A stretch of 64,000 nucleotides of DNA from an uncultured Bacilli bacterium (GTDB lineage: Bacteria > Bacillota_I > Bacilli_A > RF39 > UBA660): positions 520 through 64,519 of the forward strand of contig CANRHC010000001.1 in NCBI GenBank assembly GCA_947630305.1, given 5' to 3'. The stretch's first letter is position 1; each line of letters starts with the position of its first letter. Position numbers and translations under genes: made by a program. A model generated the notes under the pieces. It saw only the letters and a program-made list of their open reading frames with translations, had not been told where the DNA came from and did no database searches. Shown here in pieces: positions 3,222 through 64,000 of the stretch.

Positions 3222-3234
3222 TTTAAAAAAGGAG

Positions 3235-3584: not shown

Positions 3585-3592
3585 ATAAAACC

Positions 3593-3621: not shown

Positions 3622-3652
3622 ATAAGTATAAAATAAATTAAAGGAGTTACAA

Positions 3653-3934: not shown

Positions 3935-3936
3935 AA

Positions 3937-4146
3937 ATGAACAAGGACGAGTACATGGAATATAAACTAAAATATCTTGAAACACTAAAGAAAGAATTAC
4001 AAGGTGTACTGGATAGAATGTATGATGATTATAATTTTACTGAAAAGAAATATAACGATTTATTAGTTAGTAAAGTTACTGAAATGTTTCACAGTTTAAA
4101 ATGTTTAGCATATTTTCCTGAGTTTGAATTACCTGCGGAAAATTAA
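3937..4146 (+). CDS. Early protein, unknown function (69 aa)
   Basis: ATG at 3937 two nt after the upstream stop, with AAAAGGAG RBS. Probably translationally coupled. Confidence 0.5.
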   Translation: MNKDEYMEYKLKYLETLKKELQGVLDRMYDDYNFTEKKYNDLLVSKVTEMFHSLKCLAYFPEFELPAEN

Positions 4147-4175
4147 AATTAATTAAAAAAAGTTTAAAAAAACAC

Positions 4176-4204
4176 TTGACAATATCATTTATAGATTATA
4201 TAAT
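4176..4204 (+). promoter_or_regulatory. Sigma-A-type early promoter P10
   Basis: TTGACA-17-TATAAT, followed by TATAAGTACAATAAAGAAAGGAATTAGAAAATG. Confidence 0.6.
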
Positions 4205-4233
4205 ATAAGTACAATAAAGAAAGGAATTAGAAA

Positions 4234-5430
4234 ATGAAAAAATTTAGTTTTAATGTAAAAGACATGTTAGAAGTATTAAACGGTATTAAATTAAATAAAG
4301 CAAAGAATGGTCACGTATTAACAATTAAAGATAAGAATATAGTTTTAACAGCTCACGGAAAAGACGGATTAAATACAATCTACACTTACTCATCCGATAT
4401 AGAATATAAAGACGAACAAATGGGAAATACAACCAGTTTTGACTTTTGGAAATTCTATGATGCTATAAAAGATTTATCAGATATTGGAGACCGTTGTAAA
4501 GTAGAGGTTGAAAATGAAACCGCCACTTTAACAGTTGATTATTTAGGTATTAAAATTGACGTTTTAGATTATGATTGTAATGTAGTAAATTCTGACATAG
4601 AGGATAAACTTTATGAAAACAATCTCTTTTATTTACCGATTGAAAATAAAAAACAATTAATCAACAATCTAGAAACATTAAAGAAGTTTACCGCAGTTAA
4701 TGAAAATCAAATACCTATTATAACAGGCGTTAAAGTTGAAGTGAAAGACAATACCTGCCGATTTATAGCAATAGATGGCTTTAGATTTATTACTATTGAT
4801 TATAAGATTGAACGACCAAATAGCAGTACTATCTCCCAAGAGGATTTTGAGTTTGTATTAAATAAAAGTCAACTTGAATCTTTAGTTAAAATTTTAAGAA
4901 ATAATAAAACAGCTAGTCAAATTGAGTTTACTTTAAACAAAGATAATTTAGTTGATATATTAGTATTTAAAGAATTAAATTTAGGTTGTAATTATATAGG
5001 TATTCAAAGTAACGCTTTAGAAGGTAACTTTTTTGACTATACAACTGTTATACCAAAAAAGAAAACTCACTCACTTAAACTTAATAAGAATAATCTAGTT
5101 AAAACTACTAAAGTTATCAATAAAGCGAAATCTGATGATTTAAGTTTAATAGTATTTAATAAAACGGATAATAGCTTATTACTAACTGATAAGAAAGATA
5201 AAATTAAATCAACCTTTTCTGATATTGATAACTTAAGTAACTATACGGACGTAAAATTTGGTATTAACTCAAGTTATCTGTTAAACAGTTTAGATAACAT
5301 AAATTCAAGTGAGGTAACACTAGACTTTAAAGCGGAAGATAATACACTTATTGAACCTTTAGTTATTAACGATAATAATAAATATAGCAATAACAATTAC
5401 TATATTTTACCAGTTAGAATGACTGCTTAA
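4234..5430 (+). CDS. dnaN: DNA polymerase sliding clamp (DnaN/beta-clamp-like), 398 aa
   Basis: Three-domain length. Central ...IPIITGVKVEVKDNTCRFIAIDGFRFITID... resembles the beta-clamp domain II start. C-terminus ...YYILPVRMTA resembles the bacterial beta-clamp C-terminus ...VVMPMRL. Own promoter P10. Confidence 0.55.
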   Translation: MKKFSFNVKDMLEVLNGIKLNKAKNGHVLTIKDKNIVLTAHGKDGLNTIYTYSSDIEYKDEQMGNTTSFDFWKFYDAIKDLSDIGDRCKVEVENETATLTVDYLGIKIDVLDYDCNVVNSDIEDKLYENNLFYLPIENKKQLINNLETLKKFTAVNENQIPIITGVKVEVKDNTCRFIAIDGFRFITIDYKIERPNSSTISQEDFEFVLNKSQLESLVKILRNNKTASQIEFTLNKDNLVDILVFKELNLGCNYIGIQSNALEGNFFDYTTVIPKKKTHSLKLNKNNLVKTTKVINKAKSDDLSLIVFNKTDNSLLLTDKKDKIKSTFSDIDNLSNYTDVKFGINSSYLLNSLDNINSSEVTLDFKAEDNTLIEPLVINDNNKYSNNNYYILPVRMTA

Positions 5431-5452
5431 ACATTTTAAATTCAAGATTAAA

Positions 5453-5478
5453 TAGGAGAATAAACTCCTATTTTTTCT
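5453..5478 (+). terminator. Rho-independent terminator after the clamp gene
   Basis: TAGGAGAATAAACTCCTA hairpin followed by TTTTTTCTG. Confidence 0.6.
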
Positions 5479-5498
5479 GTTTAATTAGGAGGAAAATC

Positions 5499-6323
5499 AT
5501 GTTAGATAAAATGAAAAAACTAGTTGAGAACAGAGGACTTTCAACTTATGAAATAGTACATAATACCGGCTGTGTTTCACGTACTAATATTTTAGAACCG
5601 GTTATAAACGGAGATAAAGAAATTACCAGTACTAACTTTAATAACTTATCAGCTTTTGCGCGTGGACTTGGTGTTACTATTGAGGATATTTTGGAGGATT
5701 ATGACTATGATGGAACAACAGCTCAAATACTTAATATTGAACGTACGGTTAAAAGATTTAAAAAGCATCAACAAAACGGTATAGTTTTAACAGAAAATGA
5801 GGACGGTGGCTATGTTATCGGTGCGAGATATGAGGTAAACAAATATGAAAATTTTCCTATTCTGAAAAAAGATTTTGAGATAATAGAAAAGAATAAATTC
5901 CATTCAGAACAATTAACAGAACCGATATATCTATTAAACAGAAGATGGTTAAATACCAGTAGTAAAAACACTTATTTAACTAAGAATAATACCCTTACTA
6001 ACCTCGCCCCAAAACTAAATAAATATTCTATGGCGTTCTTTATTTACTCACCTATTTATGATAATAACGATTTAATCGGTGGGGATTTTAAACTGGCTAT
6101 ATCTGTATTGAATAAAGAAGGCTTTTTTAGCTTTAGTGAGGTATATGGCTGTGAATGGCTTAAAACAGAAGAAACACGCCACATAGTTTATTATAAAGCA
6201 TACAATGAACATTTATACGTTACTCCTGAAAGAATAGAAGAATGGGAAAAAGAAGAAATTTCAGAACTTGAATATTGGAAAGCAATTTATACTCAATTCT
6301 TTAAATTTGGTATAAGTAAATAA
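5499..6323 (+). CDS. HTH (XRE-like) DNA-binding protein with a C-terminal domain of unknown function, 274 aa
   Basis: N-terminal LVENRGLSTYEIVHNTGCVSRTNI...LSAFARGLGVTIEDIL is a helix-turn-helix pattern. AGGAGG RBS. Confidence 0.5.
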   Translation: MLDKMKKLVENRGLSTYEIVHNTGCVSRTNILEPVINGDKEITSTNFNNLSAFARGLGVTIEDILEDYDYDGTTAQILNIERTVKRFKKHQQNGIVLTENEDGGYVIGARYEVNKYENFPILKKDFEIIEKNKFHSEQLTEPIYLLNRRWLNTSSKNTYLTKNNTLTNLAPKLNKYSMAFFIYSPIYDNNDLIGGDFKLAISVLNKEGFFSFSEVYGCEWLKTEETRHIVYYKAYNEHLYVTPERIEEWEKEEISELEYWKAIYTQFFKFGISK

Positions 6324-6328
6324 TCAAG

Positions 6329-6366
6329 AATTAACCTATATTAATTTATAGGTTAATTTTTTTTTG
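6329..6366 (+). terminator. Strong rho-independent terminator closing the early block
   Basis: AATTAACCTATA-TTAATTT-ATAGGTTAATT hairpin followed by a run of nine T. Confidence 0.75.
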
Positions 6367-6374
6367 CCCAATGC

Positions 6375-6590
6375 GTGAAAATGTAAACGTTTTATTTTAC
6401 ACGTATTTAATACTTTTTCTGTCTTTGTATGTTATTATACTTATTTAATCTATCCCCCATTATTTTGTAAATTAAAGCGTTTTATACCATAATTGCTAAT
6501 TATACACCTATTTGATATTATTAATGTTTAGTTTTACTTATTTTAGGTTATAAATGTAAACGTTTTATTTTAACCGTATTTAAAAGATTT
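6375..6590. repeat. Direct repeat AATGTAAACGTTTTATTTTA(c/a)ACCGTATTTAA, two copies
   Basis: Copies at about 6380-6412 and 6552-6584. The core AAACGTTT is palindromic. Confidence 0.7.
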
Positions 6591-6837
6591 TACCCTTACC
6601 TATATTAGAATACCTTTCAAAATTAATACCCTTTATTTTGCCGATTTGAGACTACACGATTTTAAGCTTTCCATTTGCAAATATCAGCTTTCTATGATAT
6701 ACTTATTATATCAAAATAGAATTACTATGAATAATAGGATAACTCTATTCAAGACCTTTGAAATTTTAAATCGAGAATTTTTAATTTTCTGATGGGAGAA
6801 TAAAAAATGTCAGATATTAATGCGTCTTTTTACACTG

Positions 6838-7062
6838 GTCAAAATTCAATTACGATTCGGTGGTCAAAATTCGTTTAACATCTGATGGTCAAAATTCAAT
6901 CGTCATGGTCTGTATTAAAAAATGGTAAAATTTTAAACACCACCACTCCGACCTTTGACTTTTGACAGCTGATAAAATTCTGCCAGTCCGTCCAATTGAG
7001 AGTTAATAAAATTCTGCCACTCCGTCTATTTGACAGCTAGGAATTTTCTGCCACTCTGCCCA
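6838..7062. repeat. Iteron arrays: 3x GGTCAAAATTC then 3x AATTCTGCCA(C/G)TC(C/T)G(T/C)C
   Basis: GGTCAAAATTC at about 6838, 6860 and 6886. AAAATTCTGCCAGTCCGTCC, AAAATTCTGCCACTCCGTCT and TTTTCTGCCACTCTGCCC at about 6974, 7007 and 7035. TTGAC(A/T) elements lie between them. Confidence 0.75.
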
Positions 7063-7196
7063 TCTGAAAGAAAAGAAAAAAAAAGAATAAAAAGAATATA
7101 CTACCAATGCGTTTAGTGTCATCAAAAGGTGATTGGTGACAAAATACCGCTATTTGGCACGAAAGAATCCACACTCACAAAATACCACCATGCGTG

Positions 7197-7231
7197 AAAA
7201 AAAAAGTCTGTACACATTTCTGCATACAGAC
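7197..7231 (-). terminator. Rho-independent terminator (minus strand) ending the leftward middle operon
   Basis: Minus strand reads GTCTGTATGCAGAAATGTGTACAGAC followed by a run of nine T. Confidence 0.55.
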
Positions 7232-7286
7232 CATATCTCAACTTCAAAATGTTTATTAATACCCTTTAAAGTTTATCCTTTCTTAT

Positions 7287-7625
7287 CTAATACCATTCTA
7301 ACGCTATCTTGTCTAATTCCGTCATATCCAGCAACTCAAGTCCGTACTGATGTGCTTCATACATTGTACTCTCACTCATTGGAAATTTTTTCAGTATTTC
7401 TTTAAACTGCATGCCCACAATGTATCTTGAAACCAGTACTGCCCTCTCCCTTGCAGGAAGTTTGTTGACCGCACGTTCAAACGCCTCTAACTCATTTAAA
7501 AGTTCCGTTGCCCTTTCATGCAAATAATCAACTAATTCTTGAGTTTCATCCATTACTTCTATCCACCGGTCATCAGGTCTTTTATGAATGTTCCCTGATG
7601 GCATCCCTGTTAGAATACTGGTCAA
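7287..7625 (-). CDS. ArpU-like / sigma-70 region-4-like transcriptional regulator (112 aa), candidate late-gene activator
   Basis: C-terminal ERAVLVSRYIVGMQFKEILKKFPMSESTMYEAHQYGLELL matches the sigma-70 region 4 HTH pattern. Size is typical of the ArpU/RinA-type phage late activators of Firmicutes. Confidence 0.5.
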   Translation of the reverse strand: MTSILTGMPSGNIHKRPDDRWIEVMDETQELVDYLHERATELLNELEAFERAVNKLPARERAVLVSRYIVGMQFKEILKKFPMSESTMYEAHQYGLELLDMTELDKIALEWY

Positions 7626-7837
7626 TTTGATTTTTGTTGATTGAAGTCTTTCAAGTTCTGTTACGTGAGAGTCAAAATCAATTTTAATATACCTGTATTC
7701 ATTTAACCGCTGTTTACGTCTTTCAAGTTCTTCTTTTGTAATTCCGTTATGTTCTATTCTTAACCTGCTTTCTATGAACAGAACATCTGATTGTATTAAA
7801 ATTTTGTCGGATTTAATACTGCATGACCTTAGATAAA

Positions 7838-7935
7838 AACTAGGAGGTGTTCGTTTTCCTCAGCTAAAAACTAGGTGGTATCCATTTTCCTCAGCTGTAA
7901 ACCAGGTGGTATATTTTTAACTCAGCTGAAAACTA
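7838..7935 (+). promoter_or_regulatory. Cluster of four AAAACTAGGAGGT-like motifs with a CCTCAGCT spacer repeat
   Basis: AAAACTAGGAGGTGTT, AAAACTAGGTGGTATCC, AAACCAGGTGGTATAT and AAAACTAGGAGGTCTAAT lie in the 300-bp intergenic region upstream of the regulator gene. Confidence 0.5.
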
Positions 7936-7941
7936 GGAGGT

Positions 7942-9366: not shown

Positions 9367-9778
9367 TTAATCTGTCAATATAAGTCTTAGCTTTTTCTAA
9401 ATCCCCTGAGCTGTTACCTTTATACGGGTATCTCAGGAGGTATTTCATAATACAAAACAAATAACCTGCTTCCGTATTATCTATTCCGTCATTATGGTAT
9501 GCCTGAATAGTATCAATAATATCCCACGCCGCTAGACCATTATGGAAGTAGTAATTTCTTTGTTCATTTAGAAATCCATTGAAATCACCAAATTCGAAGT
9601 CTACACTAGGTGTTTTTTCTAATTTTTCTTTATAGGTGCCTAAATCATCTCCCTTATAACCTTTAAGAACAAGATAAACCTCACCGTCAGGTCTTTCTTT
9701 AATTTCCTCAATACTTAAATCATTTAATAAACTAAAATTAAACGCACCTGCATCTATATTTATCTTAATTTCACTCAC
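9347..9778 (-). CDS. DUF3310-like phage protein (143 aa)
   Basis: C-terminal YLLRYPYKGNSSGDLEKAKTYIDRLIDY resembles the conserved KG...DL.KA..Y...LI block of DUF3310. Confidence 0.4.
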   Translation of the reverse strand: MSEIKINIDAGAFNFSLLNDLSIEEIKERPDGEVYLVLKGYKGDDLGTYKEKLEKTPSVDFEFGDFNGFLNEQRNYYFHNGLAAWDIIDTIQAYHNDGIDNTEAGYLFCIMKYLLRYPYKGNSSGDLEKAKTYIDRLIDYIKK

Positions 9779-10178
9779 TAAACATTTCCTCTAGGTTTAT
9801 ATCTTTCATAATTTTATTCGTTATATTACTTAAATCGTATAACAGTTTAACCATTAAACCCTCGTCATCTATTAATTCATCTATTGTATCCGTTGATAAA
9901 GTGTAGAGTTTTCCAGTTACCTTATCTCTGATAGAAAATTCTTTTTCCTCAACAGGTTTATCATCTTCAACTTTCATTGAACCGTATTCCAAGAAGTCAA
10001 AGTATTTCCCCTCATGTAATAATAGTTCTGATACAATTTGTCCTATATCATGAAGATTTAAACTGTCTATCTGTTTACCGTCAACTACAAAATCAATAGG
10101 GTTACCATTCTGGTCGTTAAATTTAATTCTCATGTTATTCATTTTATTCCTTTCTTCTTTTTTAATTACAAAATTCAA
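9771..10178 (-). CDS. Hypothetical protein (135 aa)
   Basis: ORF in the co-directional array. Confidence 0.4.
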   Translation of the reverse strand: MNFVIKKEERNKMNNMRIKFNDQNGNPIDFVVDGKQIDSLNLHDIGQIVSELLLHEGKYFDFLEYGSMKVEDDKPVEEKEFSIRDKVTGKLYTLSTDTIDELIDDEGLMVKLLYDLSNITNKIMKDINLEEMFSE

Positions 10179-23407: not shown

Positions 23408-24118
23408 TCAGTTGCCTCCTGTATAAAATCGCTCTGACTTATGAAGTTCAATGAGTTCAGAATCCTCGTGTTTTCTGTGCATATAGTAAAATCCAAGGCA
23501 TTTTTGAGTTGAACAATGTCTGCCGGCATTTTTTACCACGTCATAGCCATACTTTTTTCTAGGATTTTTTATGGCGTTAATAATATTTTCATCATGATTA
23601 CTTTCTAAAAACATATAATCGTATTCCTTATCTGGTGCGTTACTGAAATCTCTACTGTCAGTACAGTAAATAATTTCATACTGCTCACCCTCTTTTTCTA
23701 TGCTAAAGACGTAACCTGAATTAACGACATCATGAATTGCTTCAAATGATTCAAACGTGTATTCACCGACTGTTTCACTCTCACCCCAGTCAATTACTAC
23801 ATCCACATCACCATTTAACTTTTGTGAAACCTGCCAGTTAGAAATTGTTGTAATGTTAGGAAAGAATTTACGTATCTTTTTATAAGTCGTATCCTTTAGA
23901 TGGTCTCCGTGTATATGCGTTATTATCAGATAGTCAACACCGTAAAGGTATTCCCGTATCTGTGTGTACGCAATGCCACAGTCAATCATTATATTTTCTA
24001 TTACAACGCAATTTCCGCTACTGCCTGACTTCACAACCTCGTACTCAAGCATATAATTCCTCTGTTTTTCATGGATGGAACATATGCTTAAAACGACTGC
24101 CCTTTTAAGAGCAGTCAA
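23408..24118 (-). CDS. Metallo-beta-lactamase-fold hydrolase (236 aa)
   Basis: IITHIHGDHL is the HxHxDH zinc-binding motif. Downstream D and H residues are present. Confidence 0.65.
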   Translation of the reverse strand: MTALKRAVVLSICSIHEKQRNYMLEYEVVKSGSSGNCVVIENIMIDCGIAYTQIREYLYGVDYLIITHIHGDHLKDTTYKKIRKFFPNITTISNWQVSQKLNGDVDVVIDWGESETVGEYTFESFEAIHDVVNSGYVFSIEKEGEQYEIIYCTDSRDFSNAPDKEYDYMFLESNHDENIINAIKNPRKKYGYDVVKNAGRHCSTQKCLGFYYMHRKHEDSELIELHKSERFYTGGN

Positions 24119-24197
24119 GAAAATAATTCAGAGATTTTAAAATGTTTTCTCTATCTACAATAACAGCTATATTCTCGGTACTTCCTCCTTTCTCGCT

Positions 24198-24494
24198 TTA
24201 GGGTCTGTGTTTTACAACAGCTTTTGCGTATCTCCCCATATCTACATCCTCGATTAAATCCTCCCATGGAATTTTTTTAGGGTCTTCAAAATCATAAGTA
24301 TTGAAAAATACCCTCATTGGATTACAGGGAAAATGCAAAAAATGTAACATGATTTCGATTTCATTACTGTTGAACACGCCCTTTCTAAGCTTTCTTCTAA
24401 AATCTTCTACAGACGTATCAAGTATCATAGCCACTTCCCTAGTTGAAAAATTATTGTACTTGATTATGTCGTATAACCGCTGACTATCTACCAT
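24198..24494 (-). CDS. Cro-like HTH regulator (98 aa), divergent from the repressor gene
   Basis: FSTREVAMILDTSVEDFRRKL helix-turn-helix. Transcribed divergently from the repressor across a 320-bp AT-rich region. Confidence 0.5.
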   Translation of the reverse strand: MVDSQRLYDIIKYNNFSTREVAMILDTSVEDFRRKLRKGVFNSNEIEIMLHFLHFPCNPMRVFFNTYDFEDPKKIPWEDLIEDVDMGRYAKAVVKHRP

Positions 24495-24814
24495 GACTTT
24501 ATAATATCACAGAAAAATTTAAATACAAGGAAATTTTTAAGAAATTTACAAATTATTTATTTGTATTTAATTATAATTATTCTGTTAATAATTATAGTAT
24601 GATAACTGGTGATTATACTTATTTCAAGTCCTTTTTCAATTTTTCTCGAATTTTTGAGTAAATTCAATTATGTAGTAATAATATGCTATAACTGCTCATT
24701 ATGTTATAAAGATTATCAATAAATGGTAATTATACGAGTATAAAAATCTTTAAATTTACGACCATTTCATTTATAATATATTTTAAGAAATACTCTTCAT
24801 ATGGGTGGTTTGAT

Positions 24815-25441
24815 ATGTACGGGAAGAGATTAAAGCAATTAAGAAAACAGAGAGGGTTAAAGCAGGTTGAGTTGTCTAGAATAAGTGGGGTATCTGTTAC
24901 CAATCTGACAAGATATGAGAATACAGAATACAACATTGTAAAATCCAATACAGTAGAAAAACTGGCAAAAGCCCTCGGTACAACCAGTGATTACCTTTTG
25001 GGGATAACTGATTTTGAAAATTTAGAGGTCGTTGAGTTAAACAAAACAGATACTCTGCCTGTGCCAGTTTATGGTACGATTCCTGCCGGACGTCCAATAG
25101 AGGCTCTTGAGGTTGATGGTGGTTATATCAATATAGACAAAAGTAATTTCCGTGGCGGCAAACAGTTTATCGGTCTGAAAGTCAAGGGTAATAGTATGTA
25201 CCCTTTTTATATAGATGGAGATACGGTTATTGTTGAAATTACCGCAGATGCTAAAAGTGGCGAGGATGTTGTAGCCTATATCGGTTATGACCATGAAGCA
25301 ACATTGAAACGTTTTCATATAAAAGACGACCACGTTGAATTAGAGCCATTAAACAGAGAATACCCTGTGCGCTCTTATTATAAAACAGATATTCCTGTTC
25401 GTATTTTAGGTGTTGTAAGGGAATTGAGGAGAAACATATGA
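24815..25441 (+). CDS. CI/LexA-like repressor (HTH plus S24 peptidase domain), 208 aa
   Basis: N-terminal LKQVELSRISGVSVTNLTRYE helix-turn-helix. C-terminal GNSMYP...LKRF carries the Ser/Lys dyad. Confidence 0.8.
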   Translation: MYGKRLKQLRKQRGLKQVELSRISGVSVTNLTRYENTEYNIVKSNTVEKLAKALGTTSDYLLGITDFENLEVVELNKTDTLPVPVYGTIPAGRPIEALEVDGGYINIDKSNFRGGKQFIGLKVKGNSMYPFYIDGDTVIVEITADAKSGEDVVAYIGYDHEATLKRFHIKDDHVELEPLNREYPVRSYYKTDIPVRILGVVRELRRNI

Positions 25442-26547
25442 AAATCAGTAAGGTAAAGGGTAAGGACTCCTATCGGGGGTATGTAAGAAAGCCTGACGGG
25501 GGTTATAAACAAATATACGGTAAAACTAAAAAAGAGGTTCGGGAAAAAGCCGAATCTCTATCTTTTGATATAAAGACTGGAAAATTTGTAGAAAATAATA
25601 AAATAAGTTTTGAGGACTGGTGTAATGAATGGGTTGATAATTATTTGATTAATGTAAGTTTACTCACCAAGAGAACCTACAAGAAACATATGAAAAACCA
25701 TATAATCAAAGAATTTAAAAATGTTAAATTACAGAATCTCACCCATAATCAAGTCCAACGTTTCATTCAGAAGTTAAGTCAAAATTATGCTCCTAAAACT
25801 GTCCGCAATATTTACCTTGTTCTCCACCGCTCATTATCTGATGCAGTAAAAAACGGTTTTATTTCCTTTAATCCCTCTGATGATATTATCCTGCCAAAAC
25901 TGGTTAAAGAAGAAATTAAAGTACTCGAGTTAGATGAAATAGATACCTTTATTAATCTAGCCTATGAATTAGTACCGGAGTATGCCGATTGTTTAGAATT
26001 TCTCCTGTTTACCGGTCTCCGTATTTCTGAATTTATCGGTCTAACCATTGATAACTATAATTCTGAAACCAAAACCCTTACAGTAAATAAACAGTATGAC
26101 AGAGTGGATAGAGTTTATATTCCGCCTAAATATGGTGCGACAAGGGAGTTTAGGTTATCAGAAAGTGCAGTTAAGATTGTAGAAAACAGAATAAGTAAAA
26201 TAAATAAAAGACGTGAAAAATTTCCAAACTACAATGATGAGAATATTTTGTTTTTAAACCCTGAATCAGAAAGAATTACACAACAGACTTTAAGAAAGAA
26301 ATTAAAGATAGTAACTGCTAAATTAGGTAAAGAAGATTTTAGATTGCATGACTTAAGACATACCTTTGCTACTCTCACAATAGCTAGTGGTACAGAAATA
26401 AAAACATTACAGAAGATATTAGGTCATACGGATGCCAGTTTTACAATGAATGTTTATGCACATTCTACTGAAATAATGAATAAAATTGCAGCTGAGAATT
26501 TAGAAAATTTTAGGAAAAATAGTTACAGAATAGTTATAGGTGATTAA
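25438..26547 (+). CDS. int: Tyrosine integrase/recombinase (369 aa)
   Basis: Catalytic residues: R in GLRISE, HDLRHTFAT, LGHTDASFTMNVYAH (His and Tyr). Start overlaps the repressor stop. Confidence 0.85.
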   Translation: MKISKVKGKDSYRGYVRKPDGGYKQIYGKTKKEVREKAESLSFDIKTGKFVENNKISFEDWCNEWVDNYLINVSLLTKRTYKKHMKNHIIKEFKNVKLQNLTHNQVQRFIQKLSQNYAPKTVRNIYLVLHRSLSDAVKNGFISFNPSDDIILPKLVKEEIKVLELDEIDTFINLAYELVPEYADCLEFLLFTGLRISEFIGLTIDNYNSETKTLTVNKQYDRVDRVYIPPKYGATREFRLSESAVKIVENRISKINKRREKFPNYNDENILFLNPESERITQQTLRKKLKIVTAKLGKEDFRLHDLRHTFATLTIASGTEIKTLQKILGHTDASFTMNVYAHSTEIMNKIAAENLENFRKNSYRIVIGD

Positions 26548-27013: not shown

Positions 27014-27907
27014 TTAAAATGGATTTACGTATCCTAGAATACCATAATCTCTATAAACTCTATAAACTCCGATACCTGAGCCTTGGTCAGTATTGCCTTC
27101 AATGCTTGTTACACAATCGCTAGCGTGTACTTCTTCTACTATACCTATATGGTCAGGCGTACCATTACCGTTAAAATCAAATAATACAAAATAGCCAGGT
27201 TGAGGATTGCCAGTCCATCTTCCGTTTTCTTCAGCCCAAGATTTCATTGTTGGCACATAACCGGTTACTGGAACGTTGAGTCCAGCATCTAATGCCCAAC
27301 ATACAACTGCGTAACAGCACCAATCACCAGCCATTTCACCGGCAATTCTGCGTCCAAAAACGGAATCTTCACTAGTACCAGTAATGTATCCTAAATCCTG
27401 TCTTGCTCTATCAAGGATATTAGGAGCGTTAGAAACAGGAGGATTTTGTGGGGTTAAATCTTTATAAGTGAAGTCAGAATCAACTTGAGGTGTAATGTTA
27501 TCAGACTTAGCATGAAATTGAATCTGTATAGCCTCTGCCTGAACATTACCACCGACAGTACCATTTAACTCACCATTTTTGCTCCACTCAAGCCATCCAA
27601 AATTAGCTAAATGTAATCTGTACCAAATATCAAACTTATCAGCATTTTCACCAATAAGTCCTATCTTGACTGCCTCTATGTGTTTGCCAAGACCAGTAGA
27701 GCCGACAGGTTCACCTAAAATATTTCCACTAGACCAACCGAGGTCTTGAACATGAGCAAAAGCCTGAACACCAACTCCTGCCTCTCCTAAATCGTCAATC
27801 TGAAAGGCTTCTAATGGAATACTCGCTCCTACTGTACCGGCAATCATATTATCGAAAACAGGTGGCATCCAACCGTAGTTACTGATATGTGCTTTGTAAC
27901 TAATCAT
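27014..27907 (-). CDS. Endolysin: N-terminal ChW (clostridial hydrophobic W) repeats plus C-terminal CHAP amidase/peptidase domain
   Basis: Repeated ...NYGW / DLGWSSG / NFGWLEW modules. C-terminal GDWCCYAVVCWALDAG...PDHIGIV gives a Cys...His pair. Confidence 0.65.
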   Translation of the reverse strand: MISYKAHISNYGWMPPVFDNMIAGTVGASIPLEAFQIDDLGEAGVGVQAFAHVQDLGWSSGNILGEPVGSTGLGKHIEAVKIGLIGENADKFDIWYRLHLANFGWLEWSKNGELNGTVGGNVQAEAIQIQFHAKSDNITPQVDSDFTYKDLTPQNPPVSNAPNILDRARQDLGYITGTSEDSVFGRRIAGEMAGDWCCYAVVCWALDAGLNVPVTGYVPTMKSWAEENGRWTGNPQPGYFVLFDFNGNGTPDHIGIVEEVHASDCVTSIEGNTDQGSGIGVYRVYRDYGILGYVNPF

Positions 27908-27959
27908 AATAAACCTCCTTGTAATCGTTTACATCAAAGGGTAAAAAAAGAGAACCTAA

Positions 27960-49089: not shown

Positions 49090-49103
49090 TGTAAACGTTT
49101 ACA
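49090..49103. promoter_or_regulatory. Perfect 14-bp palindrome TGTAAACGTTTACA
   Basis: Shares the AATGTAAACGTTT core with the two repeats at 6375-6590. Lies between a hairpin and the RBS of the head-protein gene. Confidence 0.5.
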
Positions 49104-55716: not shown

Positions 55717-57420
55717 TTATCCTACTGTTATCTTGTTCATCCGTCTACTTAACTGTTCACAGGCATAACGGGTCGCATCTATTGTATGATTGTTTTCGTC
55801 AGGGTAACCGCTGATTACCTCACCCTCGTCATCCCGTTCGTATTCATAATTGGTAAACTCCTGAAACGCTATGGGGGTTCTGTCTTTATCAATAACGATA
55901 CGTTTTAATGATGCAAGCCATTTAACACCGTATTCAATAGAGCCATTACCTTTTATTGCTCCTCGAGCCTTAATACCACAGTTAATAAAGTCTGCCACGG
56001 ATTTAGGTTCTGCGCTATCGCATATAACAAAATCGTTATCAGTAATACCATGCTGTTTTAATTTTTCAGCGTTCTCTTCATTCTTGACTTTGTTATTTAC
56101 GATTTCATCAAAGATAATTAACTCCTGCTGCGCCTTGTTAAACTGACAGCGAACAAACGCAAATGGGTCAGGATACCAACCCCAGTCAACACCGTTTACA
56201 ACATTGTCGTAAGTCTGTATCTCCTCATCCGATATATCACGCAGTACCACGTTCTCAAATACGTTACCACCATGACCGTTTGCCTCGCCCATATACTCAT
56301 TGGCGTATGCGTCAGGGTTGACATCTCTAAGAAATTCTGCTTCGTCAATAAACGGTTTACCAAGCCAGTCCTTGGGTACATCAAGATAAGTAGAATTTAC
56401 GACCAGTCGGTTCGGTTTCTCATACATGATTTCCTTGTTTGCCCAGTTAAGTTTACTTCTTGGTGGGTTAAAGGATTTAAAGATGTATTTGTTATCATCA
56501 CCTCTGATAACAGATTGCTCGATTTTACGGATAGATTCCTGACCCTCAAACTGGTCTAATTCTTCGAACCACAGAATACCGATATGTCCGAATGGTACAG
56601 CAATAGACTTAATCTTCATAGGGTCGTCTGCCCCACGGAAGTAGATATGCTGTTCTGTTGATTTCTTTATAATCTCAAGCGGTGTTGTAGTGCATTTATA
56701 TTCAGCAGTAAGACCGAGTTTATCTATTGCCCATTTCATCTGATTGTAGACAGAGTTACGCATAGTATCTCCGACTTTACGACAGATAACAGCATGGAAA
56801 TTAGGGTTACGCTCAATTAAGTTTATAATCTCTAAACTGATAACAGAGGATTTTGTACTACCACGTCCGCCTGGCAATACGTATTCTAGATGATTATGTT
56901 CTCTTATATCATGATGTAATCCGATAAATGCCGGAGCGATATTGTCAGCGGATATGCCATGATAAGTTTCCATTTCATTGGCATAAGATTGTCTTTGCAT
57001 CTCCTCAATCTTTAACCGCTTAATCTGATTATCGAGTTCCATGGATTCAACGGTCACATCATCTGCACGTGTTTTACCACCCCATTTTTCAGGCTCTCTG
57101 TTTTTTAACCAGTACTGCATGGAAGCAGGGTGTCCGTCTACCGCTTTATCGAAAAGAGCATTCTCAACTAGGGCATCAGCCACTTCAGCACCCATATTGA
57201 CAGCATCCCGTATCTTCGGTGTACTAGCCATCCAACGCTCAAAGGTTCGTTCTGTTATACCGATACGTTTAGCTATTTCCTTAATACCGCATCCACTCAT
57301 TGCCCATGTACGGAGCGTGATTAATCTTTCCTTGGTCGTCCAGTTTTCCTTACGTGTGCTTTTAATCTCGTCATAAAAACTCTCGGGTATTTTCTTGGAA
57401 GTGTTTTTATCCTTTGCCAT
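55717..57420 (-). CDS. Terminase large subunit (PBSX/XtmB Terminase_3-like) with an N-terminal HTH extension, 567 aa
   Basis: Walker-A-like GGRGSTKS. C-terminal nuclease-region acidic residues. N-terminal 150 aa carries TWAMSGCGIKEIAKRIGITERTFERWM, a helix-turn-helix. Confidence 0.8.
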   Translation of the reverse strand: MAKDKNTSKKIPESFYDEIKSTRKENWTTKERLITLRTWAMSGCGIKEIAKRIGITERTFERWMASTPKIRDAVNMGAEVADALVENALFDKAVDGHPASMQYWLKNREPEKWGGKTRADDVTVESMELDNQIKRLKIEEMQRQSYANEMETYHGISADNIAPAFIGLHHDIREHNHLEYVLPGGRGSTKSSVISLEIINLIERNPNFHAVICRKVGDTMRNSVYNQMKWAIDKLGLTAEYKCTTTPLEIIKKSTEQHIYFRGADDPMKIKSIAVPFGHIGILWFEELDQFEGQESIRKIEQSVIRGDDNKYIFKSFNPPRSKLNWANKEIMYEKPNRLVVNSTYLDVPKDWLGKPFIDEAEFLRDVNPDAYANEYMGEANGHGGNVFENVVLRDISDEEIQTYDNVVNGVDWGWYPDPFAFVRCQFNKAQQELIIFDEIVNNKVKNEENAEKLKQHGITDNDFVICDSAEPKSVADFINCGIKARGAIKGNGSIEYGVKWLASLKRIVIDKDRTPIAFQEFTNYEYERDDEGEVISGYPDENNHTIDATRYACEQLSRRMNKITVG

Positions 57421-57620
57421 AGCTTTCTCCTTTCTTTTAGATTTCAGATATATTTTTATCCGATATTATTCTTAGTCAAAAAAAAATGACTATGTATATG
57501 TCGGTCAGGATTCCCATAGTCAAAAAATCCGTCTGCCCCTCATTCCCCCATGATGGAATCGAACCACCGGCTTCCGTATAAAACAGATTTCTACCGCTGA
57601 ATTAATGGGGTACTTCTTTA

Positions 57621-59412: not shown

Positions 59413-59501
59413 TGGTACTGGAGATGGGATTCGAACCCATATGACAAATTAATATCAGAGAATTTTAAGTCCTCTATGTATTCCAGTTCCATCACTCCAG
59501 T
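59413..59501 (-). tRNA. tRNA-Leu (TAA), type II, CCA encoded
   Basis: ACTGGAG/CTCCAGT acceptor. GAGGA-CTTAAAA-TTCTC anticodon arm. Long variable arm. GGGTTCGAATCCC T-loop. Confidence 0.7.
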
Positions 59502-59639
59502 ATGAATAGAAATAAAACCCTTAAACCTAGTAAACTTAAGTTGTTATAAGTAACCGTTCGTTTAAGGGTATTTAAAGAAGTTTATTTAAAAAGGAGGTAT
59601 AAAATGCCCAATCTCCTTACTGTATTTCAAATTTTCTTT

Positions 59640-59855
59640 TTACTCTAACAGACCTATTATTTGTTTTAACTCAGCTAAACTTATTCCACAAGGCAGGAAA
59701 TCAGACAGTAAAGCTGAATGAATTACATAACCTGATGCTGTTTCTTTTTTATAATCAAAGTAAATATCAACCAATTCACCATTTTCCCTGACAGGTTGAT
59801 AACTTATAATGTTGCCCATATAAAACAAATATTTCCTGCAAAACACAAAAAGCAT
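59640..59855 (-). CDS. Hypothetical small protein (71 aa)
   Basis: ORF. Confidence 0.3.
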   Translation of the reverse strand: MLFVFCRKYLFYMGNIISYQPVRENGELVDIYFDYKKETASGYVIHSALLSDFLPCGISLAELKQIIGLLE

Positions 59856-59986
59856 ATAATGGTAAACAGAGTTGTAAGATTATTACCATCTACACTTACT
59901 TGAAAACCCTCGCTGAATACACTAATGATAAACACAAGATTAAAAAGGGTAAGCAGGATTTTGAGTACTAAAATAAAATATTCCAT
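59804..59986 (-). CDS. Small membrane protein (60 aa)
   Basis: Two predicted TM helices. Confidence 0.3.
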   Translation of the reverse strand: MEYFILVLKILLTLFNLVFIISVFSEGFQVSVDGNNLTTLFTIICFLCFAGNICFIWATL

Positions 59987-60183
59987 TTAAATATAATCCC
60001 TGCAAAAACTACTACTGCAATAATAGTAACAAATAACCAAGACAAGTTAGACTTGACAAACATATCATCATCTTCTTTAATACTGTTTAAGGTAATCAAT
60101 GTTGCAGTCATCCAAGTTACAATTACTATTATCGCTAATATCGCTATCATCCAGTACTTCATATTCCACTCTGTCAATAACAT
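59968..60183 (-). CDS. Small membrane protein (71 aa)
   Basis: Two hydrophobic helices (WMIAILAIIVIVTWM, WLFVTIIAVVVFAGII). Confidence 0.4.
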   Translation of the reverse strand: MLLTEWNMKYWMIAILAIIVIVTWMTATLITLNSIKEDDDMFVKSNLSWLFVTIIAVVVFAGIIFKWNILF

Positions 60184-60246
60184 TAAATCCCATGGAACGT
60201 AAACTGACTATCTTATTTAAATAGTTAATATCATCAAATATCATGT

Positions 60247-60564
60247 TCAGTCCTCAAAAATTTCACCCCATGGCATAGACCAATGATGGTCTTCTTCCTC
60301 ATTAATTTCTTCCCATTCATCTAAAAGTTTTGAAATGTTTTCAGTACTATTCTTAATTAGCTTGTTAGTCAGAAAATGTATGAGTAAGTGGAAAGCAAAA
60401 TTGACGGTCAGAATAAACAGAATGAGCCATATGGTCGGTAATGATATAAACTTGTCTATTCCTAAAAAGTCATAGCCGAATACAAAAATTAAACCGTCTA
60501 TTAAGAGTAGAATAACCTTAGCTATGTAGGTAAAAAAGATTTCAGTATAAGTTACCGGTTTCAT
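60247..60564 (-). CDS. Small membrane protein (105 aa)
   Basis: Two TM helices followed by an acidic tail. Confidence 0.4.
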   Translation of the reverse strand: MKPVTYTEIFFTYIAKVILLLIDGLIFVFGYDFLGIDKFISLPTIWLILFILTVNFAFHLLIHFLTNKLIKNSTENISKLLDEWEEINEEEDHHWSMPWGEIFED

Positions 60565-60857
60565 GTAAAATTAATTCTATCTTCTATAATACAATCATCT
60601 ATAAAATAAATAGATTCCAATAAGTCCTCACGAGATGCAGGGTCTTTTCCAAGCTCATCCGCTGCCAGTTCAGCATAGTACATGACTACTCCCAAGGACT
60701 GGAAAAATTCCTTTTCATCATCTAAACGCTTCCTTACTAAATCAGTATTAGTTGTATTGATGTCCTGTTTCATTACAAAAAGAGAAACTGCCCCACCGAT
60801 TACAACAATGATACTGATAACTCCAAGAATATCTCCAATTATACTTAAGACTTGCAT
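60561..60857 (-). CDS. Small membrane protein (98 aa, N-terminal TM)
   Basis: VLSIIGDILGVISIIVVIGGAVSLFVM transmembrane segment. Confidence 0.4.
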   Translation of the reverse strand: MQVLSIIGDILGVISIIVVIGGAVSLFVMKQDINTTNTDLVRKRLDDEKEFFQSLGVVMYYAELAADELGKDPASREDLLESIYFIDDCIIEDRINFT

Positions 60858-61201
60858 TTACACTCCTTACATTCCTTATCAGGGAAATGTCCGAAGTTTG
60901 TCCAGTACGATATTTCCCTCGGGGTCGGCATAGTCGATTCCTCTTCTATATAAGGAAGCTTTAATTTTTCATTTAACTCATTAACCGTTTCAGAAAGCTT
61001 ATCAATCTTATCTCGGCTCTCATCTAACTTCTCATAAATGTTTACGTTTTGCTCCTCAAGCTCAAAAATCTCCTCCCATACCTCAAAGATTTTTTCCTGT
61101 ATTTGGATTGTCTTATCAAAAATAAACTCAATCATATCTTTGGTATAAGAAGTATTTTCAAGATTGGATGCTGACTTTAAATCTTCCAAAATACCTCGCA
61201 A
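60845..61201 (-). CDS. Coiled-coil protein with C-terminal Cys cluster (118 aa)
   Basis: Ends KECKECKCKS. First gene after the 61323-61359 terminator. Confidence 0.4.
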   Translation of the reverse strand: MRGILEDLKSASNLENTSYTKDMIEFIFDKTIQIQEKIFEVWEEIFELEEQNVNIYEKLDESRDKIDKLSETVNELNEKLKLPYIEEESTMPTPREISYWTNFGHFPDKECKECKCKS

Positions 61202-61322
61202 AATAAATGTGTATGGTAAACATCAGATAGTTGCATAAATTAAAGTTGTCAAAATCAGATAGTTGCATATTTATAATATGGTGACCACCCATCCGAGCAT
61301 AGTTGAAAAATTGGAAAACTCT

Positions 61323-61359
61323 TAAAATAAATAAAGGCTGTTTCAATTTAAAAACAGCC
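61323..61359 (-). terminator. Rho-independent terminator (minus strand)
   Basis: Minus strand reads GGCTGTTTTTAAATTGAAACAGCC followed by TTTATTTATTTT. Confidence 0.55.
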
Positions 61360-63706
61360 AGTCCGACAACTTAATTTTCAATCAGATGTTCCATCCACTT
61401 GATTTAATCGCGTATTTATAAGAAAAAGATGTTTAAAACGTTTCAGAAAAGGGTATGTTAAAATGTAGAAAACAAGGGTAACAATGCCCGTTTCTGCAAT
61501 TCCTTATAAATAACCGATTATTATACTAGCACATCTTCAACTCCAATGTCCTTTGTTTTTAGTTATAACATTATGATATACTGATATTCTTTCCTTACCA
61601 CATCCCCACCAATTACGAAGTATTATGACACTAAAATATAAGTTTAACTCTTAAAATATGGGGTTTATTTTATGAAATATCAGAAATTCTCTTAAAAAGT
61701 AAGGTCAAAAGGATTAGACATTTAGAAATCTATCTAAATACACTTCCGAAAGGAAGGGAGATTTCAAAACGGTTAGTGTTCAAAACGGAATTGAGAAATG
61801 CGGGAAAAAGCTATCAGAAATTTCTATCTTGTTACAATTGAAACTAAGTATCGTAAGGTCTTAACAATTTTAGCTAAGTATCGTAGAGGGTATTTCCATT
61901 TGGGAACGGATAATTTAAACTTATATGTTACAAATTTGTTACAGAATTTTAAAGCTTAAACTTATGGATTTTTCAAAAATAATTTTTTAACGTCAAAATC
62001 GAGGAATTATAGTTGAGAGAATCGAAGTCAAAATTAAATTGAGAAAGCAGCATAACTTCGTCCCCACTCCTAACTTTTCAGAAAATCCAGTAACAATCCC
62101 CGACAAAAAAGGTTAGAATTTGGAAGTTCAAAAATCCGCACCGTTATCAACAATATTTATATAAAATAATAAATTTTTTTTCTTTCTTCCCTTTCTTTCT
62201 CCAAGAAGAAGAAAAGTATTAAAAAAAGGTTTTCCTTTTTTTAAAAGTAAGTATAAATAAGTATTATAAAAACGATAACCATTTTTACATAAGTAGTAGG
62301 GAAAAAAAGAAAGAAAGGTTAGACTCCAAAAAAGAGGTTAGAATTTCCTCTTAATCTTCCCCTCTCCCTCCTGAGTGGCTTGTTGTGGGTTGCTGTTTAA
62401 AAAGAGGGGGTACGAGGTGAGCGGAACAACCTTACGTGTCTGCGTGTCAATGCTATTGACCTCATATTGATACCTGTTGTTTGCACGTGAGGTGCATGGT
62501 ATCGGTAAACACAATGAGAAGCAAAAGCATATGAACGCATGAACGTATGGACTTATGCATCTATACCTATATATTGTACTTAAGTACATGGTCTAGGTAT
62601 ATAGCAGCATCTCAAACATAAGGAAACCCCCACAGAACGCCCTCAGATAACTCAGAATCAATTTTTTTCTTTTTCATGATAAATTAATCATAAAATCAAC
62701 AAAAATTCAAATACGATTAAATTAAGGGCAAATAAAGGCAATTGAGGTTTAATTCTACTTCAACCATTTCTAACGAAAAGACACGATTCATTTCATACTC
62801 ATTTCCCTACCCTTTCTGATACCCATTCTGATTCCTGCCAAACACTTCCCCTCTAATTTTTCCTGTTTACCATTCTGTTTACCATTACTCCATTCTGTTT
62901 ACCATTACTAACGTAAAGACACGATTTACCACATGCTGTTTCTGGTGGCTCCCTGTATACAATAGTGGGGTTTCTGCTTCCCCTGCCAATTCCCCTTGCT
63001 GTTCTACCTGTTCTTCTGATATTCACTTGCTGTCCTGCCTATTCTTCTGATATAATATCTGCTGCATAGATGGGTATCATTCTGAAAGATGGGTACTCTG
63101 TCTTACAGATGGTTATATCAGTTGTACCGGCATAATGCAAAGGTCTTCTGATAACTACTGAAGTTTTTTGCCGATACCGCCAGCTCTGAAAATCGAGTTT
63201 TGAAAATTCGGTTCGCTCAGAAATCCGGTCGAAGGCACGTTTTCCAGGTCGCCGATTTTTAAATAGGGGGTCATTTACCTACCAGTCAGGTTGGTATTTA
63301 AGTTGCGGATATAAGTTTAAGTTTTAAAGTCGTATAATCGGTGTTATACGACATTACCCTTGAAACCGGTTACATCTTGCGTGATATGCGCCAGTTATAT
63401 TCCCTAGCGATTGCGTAGAATGTTGCTTAAATTGCGTGCTAGTTGTATCTCCATGTGATACAAGTTGAAACCGTTTTCATACTTTCTAGCTTTCGTTCGA
63501 TATCATTTTCCGCCCATTTCGGTTTCGTTCGAAAGCAATTCGAAACCATAAAATAACATTAAAATATAACGTATAACATACATGAAACCGCTTACACGTA
63601 ATAATTTTAACCTAAATTATACCCATTTATTGCGCTATTATTTGCAATTTCATGCAGATTCAAGCGCGTTATAATCGTAAACTATTGCAATCCTATTATA
63701 GTATTA

Positions 63707-64000
63707 TAATGATATATAATGTTATACACCGATATATAATGTTATATAACACTTAATAATATCGTAATTTATTGCATATAATAACATTATACTATTGCAT
63801 ATAATAACACTACTACTATTGCTATACCTTGCATATTATAACGTATAATAATTGCATATAACTACTATATTAATATAGTACATTCCTGCATATAATAACG
63901 TTTTATATATGCATATAATAGCAAGCCTAAAATAGTACTATCCTGCATATAATACCCTTTACTATATGCTACTATTGGCAATTATAACGGATGCATAATA
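63707..64000. repeat. Array of at least 8 TGCATATAATA(AC) repeats plus 2x GATATATAATGTTATA, running to the window edge
   Basis: Copies at about 63773, 63796, 63829, 63853, 63889, 63911, 63944 and 63989. Each resembles an extended -10 element. Confidence 0.7.

Follow-up and report, generated by a model that had tools for sequence, protein, structure and literature searches.

The DNA analysed here, hereafter the window, is a stretch of 64,000 nucleotides (nt) of contig CANRHC010000001.1 (GenBank assembly GCA_947630305.1). Judged by its gene content, the window is most of the ~69-kb genome of a temperate Clostridia myophage. Its right-hand end is occupied by a gene-free region, here called non-coding region 1 (NCR1), the largest non-coding, repeat-dense region of the genome. 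NCR1 covers 61190-64000 of the window. An extension contig, L081 (ENA ERZ27249395), is 100% identical to window positions 59449-64000 and adds 449 nt that are likewise gene-free, so that NCR1 runs to at least 64449 and measures at least 3.3 kb. Phage genomes are normally more than 90% coding, and a gene-free block of about 5% of the genome is unusual for a phage. We propose, at somewhat less than even confidence, that NCR1 is a large cis-acting hub of transcription control composed of DNA sites, and not of genes or structured RNAs.

NCR1 lies between two blocks of genes. On its left, beginning at 61189, the minus strand carries a block that comprises small genes, four tRNAs and the genes of the terminase and of the virion structure; minus-strand genes include those for the large terminase subunit (TerL, 55717-57420), an SPP1-type portal, a MuF-like protein, a lambda-E-type capsid protein, a sheath protein, a DNA polymerase, a primase-helicase and RNR. 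On its right lies the early module (1-6323), a plus-strand, AT-rich segment (GC 0.25-0.28, GC skew about +0.3) of small genes and a beta-clamp homologue (4234-5430). Since the early module is on the right and the minus-strand block on the left, NCR1 is the divergence point of the two. By analogy with the 69.3-kb circular map of a relative, about 5 kb are absent between 64000 and 1, holding at least 449 nt more of non-coding DNA and further early genes. On contig L083, which covers the 629 nt upstream of position 1, there is one more complete early gene, likewise behind a promoter of its own, and upstream of it a second gene of which the end is included. All contigs of this strain, whose coverage is about 4-5x, break between 64449 and -262 to -629, and L102 and L103 fall short of NCR1.

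Gene content and repeat structure of NCR1

Two open reading frames (ORFs) of at least 60 amino acids (aa) occur in NCR1. The frame at 62338-62589 (83 aa) had been given as the only one in an earlier sequence-only reading of the window, which overlooked a second at 61158-61346 (62 aa, TTG start) that overlaps the preceding gene at the left edge. Each kind of stop codon occurs 9-39 times per frame in all six frames. Because every stop type is abundant in every frame, no stop-codon reassignment opens a reading frame, and an alternative genetic code was ruled out: each stop is found at least nine times per frame, and the longest rescued frame (190 codons) is unconserved. The small ORFs of NCR1 match no family in Pfam or PHROGs, and comparison of all its frames with the homologous regions of relatives revealed no conserved peptide (best E = 0.007 in a tiny database). 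The earlier view that these 2.8 kb hold no credible genes is thus borne out by the stops in all frames, the lack of peptide conservation and the lack of Pfam and PHROG matches.

Other candidates for coding sequence were considered. Small conserved ORFs, including a 39-aa minus-strand ORF exactly over the conserved core described below, were rejected, as the relatives have no start codon or have stops, and spacer lengths differ by 1-2 nt and not by multiples of three. A 53-aa ORF at 61798-61959 (+), which covers both CTAAGTATCGTA repeats, was annotated as a gene in the ENA assembly, but its weak ribosome-binding site, a marginal PHROG match (E = 0.03) and the lack of a homologue in relatives make a real gene improbable. 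Nucleotide similarity searches with NCR1 gave no match in phages (near and distant settings) or in plasmids (distant settings), and an exact-pattern scan of IMG/VR gave none either. The sole exact-pattern match from JGI metagenomes (L088) was dismissed as a chance 22-mer in a high-GC contig.

The region is highly repetitive. It has 83 direct 10-mer pairs within 150 nt, where dinucleotide shuffles have 1.3 ± 1.4 and five coding controls have 1-5, and 7-nt inverted repeats with loops of up to 60 nt number 66, against 24 ± 6.7 in shuffles. All of the repeat families listed previously were recovered (Table 1), with coordinates about 1 nt off and a few copies imperfect. Folding of 62150-62269, at the polypyrimidine and polypurine tracts, reaches z = -3.3 against shuffles, and the relative L097 has an analogous inverted repeat of a CT run and a GA run. 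The arms of a proposed CCCCTCT...AGAGGGG long-range stem exist (62359-62365 and 62403-62409), but its folding does not hold up, with arms of 7 nt each and z = -0.4 for the folding window against shuffles. The iteron AAAATTCAA(A/T)TACGATT occurs as a single copy here and as three repeats in a second non-coding region of the genome (6836-6900). The iterons are species-specific, with CTGTTTACC in this phage, GTTACC in L089 and TGTAAC in L157, those of the relatives lying elsewhere in the region.

Conservation of position and architecture among relatives

Relatives of TerL in a large protein collection share 92, 80, 79, 68, 62, 60, 59 and 54% identity with it; TerL-based locus searches of IMG/VR and GTDB genomes found relatives of at most 63% identity, none with the conserved core. 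In L089 (80% TerL identity) the corresponding place, where early and late genes diverge, is free of genes over 3,192 nt, and L157 (54%) has a gene-free stretch of 3.15 kb upstream of the terminase. In these two relatives the region is complete, at about 3.2 kb each. L096 (68%) and L097 (60%) are gene-free over at least 2.2 kb and at least 1.67 kb, respectively, up to the contig end. The sequence-only reading had held that coding sequence replacing the region in close relatives would speak against it; the relatives are gene-free at the same place, and on this point it stands.

The sequence itself has turned over. Comparison of the relatives' regions with blastn found essentially no identity, apart from one 31-nt match, with structural genes 69-80% identical. 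The order of elements is common to them: an AT-rich part with dispersed palindromes and iterons, the palindrome CATGATAAATTAATCATA, a GC-richer island, an AT-rich array and then the early side. Nine 12-mers are present in at least three of the five regions, against 0.3 expected. The array units differ by phage, being TGCATATAATA here, TGATATAAT in L089 and GGATC-containing units over about 2 kb in L157. In L157, the most distant relative, the array takes up positions 300-2330 and contains GGATC(T/C) units by the dozen, GATC being a Dam-type site, together with many TGTAAC iterons. Phages of this family encode D12-class adenine methyltransferases, and methylation-sensitive binding is conceivable.

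The GC-richer island and its cre-type palindromes

The segment at 63130-63600 had been described as a GC-rich island. The island (63.15-63.6 kb) has a GC content of only 0.40-0.45, equal to the coding level of the genome. It holds a conserved core and, after it, three degenerate modules of about 110 nt, each closed by a perfect palindrome of the cre type. Aligned across four phages, the core comprises two or three GAAAATCG-type repeats, CTCAaAA, a GC-rich spacer of 30-32 nt and TTTTTAAAnnGGGGGTC; the spacer is constant in length and variable in sequence. A profile of the core (nhmmer) gave E = 1e-19 to 1e-22 in the window/L081, L089, L096 and L097, which are the four sequences from which it was built, and nothing significant beyond them in 155 loci (2.3 Mb). 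The core folds no better than shuffles (z ~ +0.7). The palindrome at 63329-63352 shows one compensatory change, T-A to C-G, in L097, which is equally expected for a DNA operator.

The consensus of cre, the operator of CcpA, is TGWAANCGNTNWCA (PMC5263246). The island repeat that had been listed as TGAAACCG proved to be three perfect matches to this consensus, spaced by 105 and 117 nt and falling within 235 nt, and the differences among the three copies are confined to degenerate consensus positions. The window has seven perfect cre sites, against 0.11 expected (maximum of two in 200 shuffles), and unrelated Clostridia phage and prophage loci (2.05 Mb) carry such sites at a background rate of 0.16 per 64 kb. 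This genome thus has about 40 to 60 times as many perfect sites as expected (7 vs 0.11-0.16). The strict cre palindrome also ranks first among all 2,520 half-site permutations, with five matches against a mean of 0.026. CodY boxes showed no enrichment (19 vs 13.7 expected).

Island sites recur in relatives, as an identical 14-mer in L096 and as one-mismatch sites in L089, L097 and L156. Two of the remaining sites of the window are intergenic palindromes of the late operon (27920, TGTAATCGTTTACA; 49090, TGTAAACGTTTACA), each preceded by a common TTTTTTTAC(C/G)CTTT motif. At the head-module position (49090), a perfect or one-mismatch site is found in L092, L089 and L156, and in L157 a perfect cre stands one gene on, directly upstream of the major capsid gene. 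No cre site of the window lies at the CI switch (24.1-24.8 kb), and the CI operators of the 24.5-24.8 kb switch (ATAAnTGnTnATTAT) do not recur in NCR1.

Candidate promoters and arrays at the edges

At the left edge, the TTGCATA heptamer of the ATCAGATAGTTGCATA repeats, which flank a candidate promoter of the minus-strand operon, recurs in the same orientation in the array at the right edge; 6 of its 15 copies in the window are in NCR1. The terminator-like hairpin nearby would halt leftward transcripts from inside NCR1 before they reach the first gene, and L096 has an analogous hairpin and T-run just upstream of its first late gene.

At the right edge, the array of TGCATATAATA units within 63773-64000 comprises five exact copies, one with one mismatch and two degenerate ones, and the rest of the window (63.6 kb) has only five one-mismatch copies. 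The sequence-only reading had counted at least eight units continuing to the window edge. The array itself is real and ends near 64000; to the right, L081 has a different repeat, GGTATTTAA, five times in place of the TGCATATAATA units. That the array might run into position 1 can also be set aside: L081 (64001-64449) and L083 (-629 to 0) have nothing in common, and L083 shows early genes upstream of position 1. Promoter activity of the TGCATATAATA units is a conjecture. In L089, the TGATATAAT units recur with a period of about 99 nt, and three of them rate as promoters with a TG-extended -10. Beyond them come four TTGACA-17-TATAAT promoters that are perfect (12/12), recur about every 100 nt and all point towards the first early gene. 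The reading as a promoter array therefore holds for L089 and is extended to this phage by inference, as the units here have no TGn or -35 and the best sites score 10/12.

In the early module, ten genes each have their own TTGACA-17-TATAAT-type promoter scoring 10-12/12, with a spacer that is always 17 nt. These promoters often have TAGGAGG just before the -10. An early module of this kind (1-6323, and also L083 1-630) is not usual in a temperate phage; it is similar to the modules by which virulent phages take over their hosts.

Table 1. Features of NCR1 and of the rest of the window, in window coordinates
Feature	Position	Strand	Remarks
Last minus-strand gene before NCR1	60845-61189	-	TTG start, GAGG ribosome-binding site; called as 114-aa gene in ENA assembly
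16-nt direct repeats ATCAGATAGTTGCATA	61222-61237, 61254-61269		32-nt period
Candidate activator-dependent promoter at minus-strand operon entry	61222-61269	-	TTGACA -35 (61252-61247), weak -10 TATCTG; flanked by ATCAGATAGTTGCATA pair
Terminator-like hairpin GGCTGTTTTTAAATTGAAACAGCC and T-run	61336-61359	-	
Dispersed family-wide motif zone	61630-62045		TTTAAAGCTTAAACTTAT, GTCAAAATTAAATTGAGA, 2x CTAAGTATCGTA
CTAAGTATCGTA x2	61844, 61874		
Palindrome TTTAAAGCTTAAACTTAT	61948-61965		Partial copies 61634 (inverted), 61915, 63309 (inverted); common to L096 and L157
GTCAAAATTAAATTGAGA	62027-62044		Twice, inverted, in L097
AAAAAAGGTTAGAATTT	62105		Second copy 62330 with 1 mismatch; third, partial copy 62311
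Polypyrimidine to polypurine inverted tracts	62170-62342		26-nt arms 62175-62200 / 62308-62333, 77% complementary; also AAAGGTTAGA x3
Nested palindrome GATACC..TGCAC-GTGAG-GTGCA..GGTATC	62469-62503		Inside the only strongly structured window of NCR1; not conserved in relatives
Conserved palindrome CATGATAAATTAATCATA and one AAAATTCAA(A/T)TACGATT iteron copy	62675-62718		Palindrome also in L089 and L097
Direct-repeat block	62763-63116	+	37-nt pair (62763 / 62901), TACCCATTCTGA x2, CTGTTTACCATT x3, 31-nt pair (62995 / 63026), AGATGG(G/T)TA x3
CTGTTTACCATT x3	62863-62909		
TGTTCTTCTGATAT and TATTCTTCTGATAT			Repeats confirmed within NCR1
Conserved core	63185-63272	+	GAAAATCG-type direct repeats (63188, 63202, 63220), CTCAGAAAT, GC-rich spacer, TTTTTAAATAGGGGGTC
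Palindrome/hairpin GTCGTATAA-N6-TTATACGAC	63329-63352		Right arm GTTATAYGAC(A/T)T conserved in L096, L089, L097
cre-type palindrome 1, TGAAACCGGTTACA	63361-63374		Perfect match to TGWAANCGNTNWCA
cre-type palindrome 2, TGAAACCGTTTTCA	63466-63479		Identical 14-mer at equivalent place in L096
TTTCGTTCGA x2, TTCGAA-centred palindrome	63491-63535		Second copy TTTCGTTCGAAAG; common to L089
cre-type palindrome 3, TGAAACCGCTTACA	63583-63596		L089 equivalent TGAAACCGCTATAA, 1 mismatch
AT-rich array	63690-64000	+	GC 0.18-0.25
TGCATATAATA units	63773, 63796, 63830, 63853, 63887, 63910, 63944; degenerate copy 63992	+	23/34-nt spacing, 57-nt super-period
Second non-coding region	6323-7287		~960 nt; convergent junction of early module and minus-strand block
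Repeats of second non-coding region	6836-6900, 6962-7056		GGTCAAAATTC iterons x3 (25-nt period, 6836-6900), 34-nt repeat x2.8 (6962-7056), A-tract, ATGTAAACGTTTTATTTTA x2
ArpU/DUF1492 sigma-region-4-like late regulator	7287-7625		
Lysogeny switch	24118-26547		Repressor and integrase on plus strand, cro-like small gene on minus
Three putative operators ATAA(C/A)TG(G/C)T(G/C/A)ATTAT	24602, 24688, 24719		
CI-type repressor	24815-25441	+	Helix-turn-helix (HTH) and S24 peptidase
Tyrosine integrase	25438-26547	+	
Endolysin	27014-27907		ChW and CHAP
cre-type site	27920-27933		13 nt before endolysin ribosome-binding site
cre-type sites	40112, 46882		Both intragenic
cre-type site	49090-49103		Gap between scaffold gene and next head gene

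A proposed hub of transcription control and the alternatives

The proposed hub would work as follows. A leftward transcript from inside NCR1 would meet the terminator-like hairpin at the left edge and then the promoter with its -35 and weak -10, bracketed by the two 16-nt repeats. Host CcpA-type proteins and phage DNA-binding proteins would occupy sites in NCR1, and the bound proteins would govern the strength of both the early promoter array and the opposite operon. Occupancy would in this way couple the lytic programme to the carbon status of the host. The iterons may recruit replication or packaging proteins, and the hub may double as an origin or pac site.

Several points weigh against this proposal. 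Each array unit has a TATAAT, yet neither a canonical TGn nor a -35; the units read TGCATATAAT, with the TG one base out of register. No promoter in NCR1 scores above 10/12, and their total in the readable part is below the shuffle expectation (11 vs 16). Tandem perfect promoters are found in L089 only, NCR1 of this phage being readable to 64449. The relatives are poorer in perfect cre sites, with one in L096, one-mismatch sites in others and none in the gene-free stretch of L157. As the cre consensus is generic for LacI/GalR-type operators, the identity of the binder is ambiguous, and it could be another LacI-type host factor or a phage protein in place of CcpA. The iterons, AT-rich arrays and strand switch fit an origin equally well, and the fast sequence turnover could mean that much of NCR1 is weakly constrained, duplication-prone DNA.

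An origin of lytic replication is possible, though we doubt that it is the principal role of the region. A phage initiator, for example the primase-helicase, would bind the iterons, and the AT-rich array and the polypurine/polypyrimidine tracts would unwind, possibly activated by transcription that starts at promoters close by. This fits the several iteron families and dyads, the five direct-repeat families at 62763-63116, the AT-rich array (GC 0.18-0.25) at 63690-64000, the species-specific GTWAC-type iteron variants of the relatives and the location at the strand switch of the map. The second non-coding region (6323-7287) shares several motifs of at least 13 nt with NCR1, often inverted, and motif sharing between two non-coding regions recalls two-part origins such as P4 ori/crr. 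A 2.7-kb non-coding region of the Vibrio cholerae element PLE, with four repeat families, holds its ori (PMC7145576). Against an origin, NCR1 has no DnaA box cluster, DnaA boxes being no more frequent than expected (20 vs 22.4), and at fine scale its GC and AT skews show no clean switch, with gene orientation confounding the skew. Its 3.3 kb are also far above the typical size of a phage origin. The second region, beside the replication and clamp genes, is at least as origin-like, with three 25-nt iterons, 34-nt repeats and an A-tract, and may be the true origin or a partner site.

The sequence-only reading had named NCR1 as the most likely location of the genome terminus, of a cos/pac/direct-terminal-repeat boundary or of a second origin. 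The terminus alternative, which we consider improbable, makes NCR1 a packaging site or terminus (pac, cos or terminal-repeat boundary), where the HTH of the terminase, resembling that of the small subunit TerS, binds the GAAAATCG repeats and the enzyme cuts in the GC-rich spacer of the core. TerL belongs to the Terminase_3/PBSX family, is fused to its own TerS-like HTH (residues ~20-120) and is encoded beside the SPP1-type portal and MuF protein. The core has direct repeats on its terminase-proximal side, a GC-rich spacer of constant length (30-32 nt) and a conserved flank, canonical temperate Firmicutes phages have their packaging site upstream of the late operon, and several low-coverage contigs end inside NCR1. 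The sole IMG/VR match to a core-derived pattern (L101) lies, in the same orientation, in a cos-type intergenic region between HNH and TerS genes.

Other observations speak against it. The core lies 5.8 kb and about ten genes from TerL, and the spacer sequence is unconserved. A Terminase_3/PBSX TerL with an SPP1-type portal and MuF is usually linked to headful packaging, which suggests the absence of fixed ends, and the temperate lifestyle argues against direct terminal repeats of the T7 or T5 type. The high-coverage contigs of L089 (69,320 and 69,319 nt) come from two assemblies and have different, arbitrary breakpoints, which indicates a circular or permuted map. The contig breaks of this strain are scattered, an effect of repeats and of the ~4-5x coverage. 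A terminus or terminal-repeat boundary is accordingly not borne out. The L101 match was rejected as probably due to chance: about 0.3-0.9 matches are expected by our own estimate, the profile is insignificant there (E = 0.06-0.1), and the HNH-cos-TerS gap belongs to an unrelated phage with an unrelated type of terminase. As side observations, the HTH of TerL (56911-57420, -) matches PHROG 309 at E = 2e-24, with the sequence ...IKEIAKRIGITERTFERW...WLKNREPEKWG, and no separate small terminase was found among the nine small proteins encoded upstream.

It is quite improbable that NCR1 is for the most part non-functional, duplication-prone spacer, in which decayed promoter copies and tandem duplications are tolerated between two transcription units. 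Near-zero sequence identity among relatives whose structural genes are 70-80% identical would be expected of such a spacer, as would units arranged as degenerate tandem duplications of 57, ~100 and ~110 nt and motifs such as TAATACCCTT that resemble the upstream part of early promoters. Yet the gene-free region holds the same position in four relatives, at 3.15-3.3 kb where both ends or most of it were recovered, despite the pressure for compact genomes, and chance falls far short of accounting for the conservation or enrichment of specific motifs, of the core and of the cre palindromes.

Least of all do we expect one or more structured non-coding RNAs (at 62300-62650 or 63130-63600, as had been suggested). 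The minus-strand terminator at 61336-61359 implies a leftward transcript end there, phage non-coding RNAs are often near tRNA genes, and the strongest fold of NCR1, at 62430-62549, is unusually good (z = -3.3 / -4.9), but this fold shares no 10-mers with relatives except one inverted 10-mer in L097 (GGTAAACACA at 62504), the conserved core folds at shuffle level, and the conserved blocks are short palindromes and direct repeats in both orientations, typical of DNA sites. The covariance models of Rfam 15, including GOLLD, ROOL and other phage-associated RNAs, gave nothing credible in 61000-64000 even at E <= 10, the best match being low-complexity noise, and at the gathering threshold the whole window has only the four tRNAs.

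A further step beyond the control hub, which we regard as rather unlikely, would be that this temperate Clostridia myophage family ties its lytic programme directly to the carbon catabolite control of its host. On this view the three phased island sites (about 110 nt apart), just upstream of the early promoter array, and those before the endolysin and head genes would serve CcpA-HPr(Ser-P), which, depending on sugar availability, would control the early transcription of the take-over and form a roadblock on the capsid and lysis genes, with the 3.3-kb NCR1 as the platform of a nutrient-sensing nucleoprotein complex.

Other features of the genome and its relatives

We infer a Clostridia host from the ChW repeats, the sigma-A type promoters, the AGGAGG ribosome-binding sites and the occurrence of TerL relatives in Lachnospiraceae and Ruminococcus genomes. 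Tandem repeats of 31 and 21 nt at 7827-7941 and 17-88 contain AAAACTAGGAGG(T), the motif that precedes the -10 of early promoters. Two minus-strand genes flank the copies at 7827-7941, which are oriented against them and might serve as antisense or decoy promoters.

Just upstream of TerL, a tRNA-like remnant at about 57515-57600 (-) has a GGTTCGATTCC T-arm and CCCCAT/ATGGGG ends, and is called by neither ARAGORN nor Rfam. L089 has three intact tRNAs (Ile, Trp, Gln) at this position (9613-9865). After the tRNA or tRNA-like stretch, a hairpin with a T-run and a TTTTGACT box stand directly before TerL.

Samples ERZ27249386/389/395/684 contain at least three related phages: this one at ~5x, a variant with 92% TerL identity at ~4x and a phage with 80% TerL identity at ~50x. 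Co-occurring phages have some identical small proteins, such as the 90-aa product of 317-589, which a 50-200 kb contig encodes as well. Such sharing points to recent module exchange among co-occurring phages, which would account for the fragmented assemblies.

Comparison with known systems and significance

Firmicutes phages such as the lactococcal c2 have an intergenic control region between divergent early and late genes, about 0.6 kb long in c2, that also holds the origin. Both there and here, a non-coding region with direct and inverted repeats lies between divergent early and late blocks and is associated with early promoters. NCR1 differs in its size of at least 3.3 kb, its larger number of repeat families, its cre-type operators and its long TATAAT array, and the phage is temperate. 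In T7, the tandem strong early promoters A1-A3 stand at the leading end of the genome. L089 is similar in having four tandem perfect consensus promoters ahead of its first early gene, with no ORFs between them; such tandem promoters are not seen in the readable part of the phage studied here, which is temperate, with a circular map and no demonstrated fixed end.

The left terminal repeat of T5 has untranslated repeat regions, also termed injection stop signal region, with DnaA boxes and fixed spacer lengths (bioRxiv 10.1101/866236). Like NCR1, these form an untranslated block on the kilobase scale beside early or pre-early-like genes, with nested direct and inverted repeats, palindromes, fixed spacers and boxes for a global DNA-binding protein of the host (DnaA in T5, and predicted cre-type boxes here). 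The T5 regions are highly conserved among T5-like phages and belong to the 10-kb terminal repeat of a virulent siphovirus, whereas NCR1 shows quick sequence turnover, belongs to a temperate phage and has neither DnaA box clusters nor any sign of terminal repeats. The V. cholerae PLE also has a multi-kilobase non-coding region with four repeat families between opposite gene clusters, one sub-region of which carries iterons (PMC7145576). In PLE, a RepA_N initiator and its semi-palindromic iterons have been identified; no such pair is assigned here, and the host lineage is another.

In the Staphylococcus aureus prophage PhiSa3XN, the cI promoter contains a cre site to which CcpA binds (PMC12607152). 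Both phages would thus have a host catabolite-control operator inside temperate-phage regulatory DNA, predicted from sequence in our case. PhiSa3XN has one imperfect site in the cI promoter, bound experimentally, whereas this phage has seven perfect consensus sites, none of them at the CI switch; three are in the island and two are just upstream of the endolysin and head-gene ribosome-binding sites. Set beside the regions of c2, T5 and PLE, NCR1 differs in size, sequence turnover and the cre cluster.

Among the relatives, both the position and the architecture of NCR1 persist through the turnover of its sequence, and it shows where the cis-regulatory logic of a new, uncultured family of temperate Clostridia phages is concentrated. 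The conserved core, the cre operators and the arrays of -10 elements offer handles for its study. Should NCR1 be an origin or pac site, these elements would be defined for a phage group without a cultured member. If the cre sites described here are real CcpA targets, the phage would sense the nutrition of its host at several steps of the lytic cycle; to our knowledge, the few prophages for which such a link has so far been demonstrated have it through single sites only.

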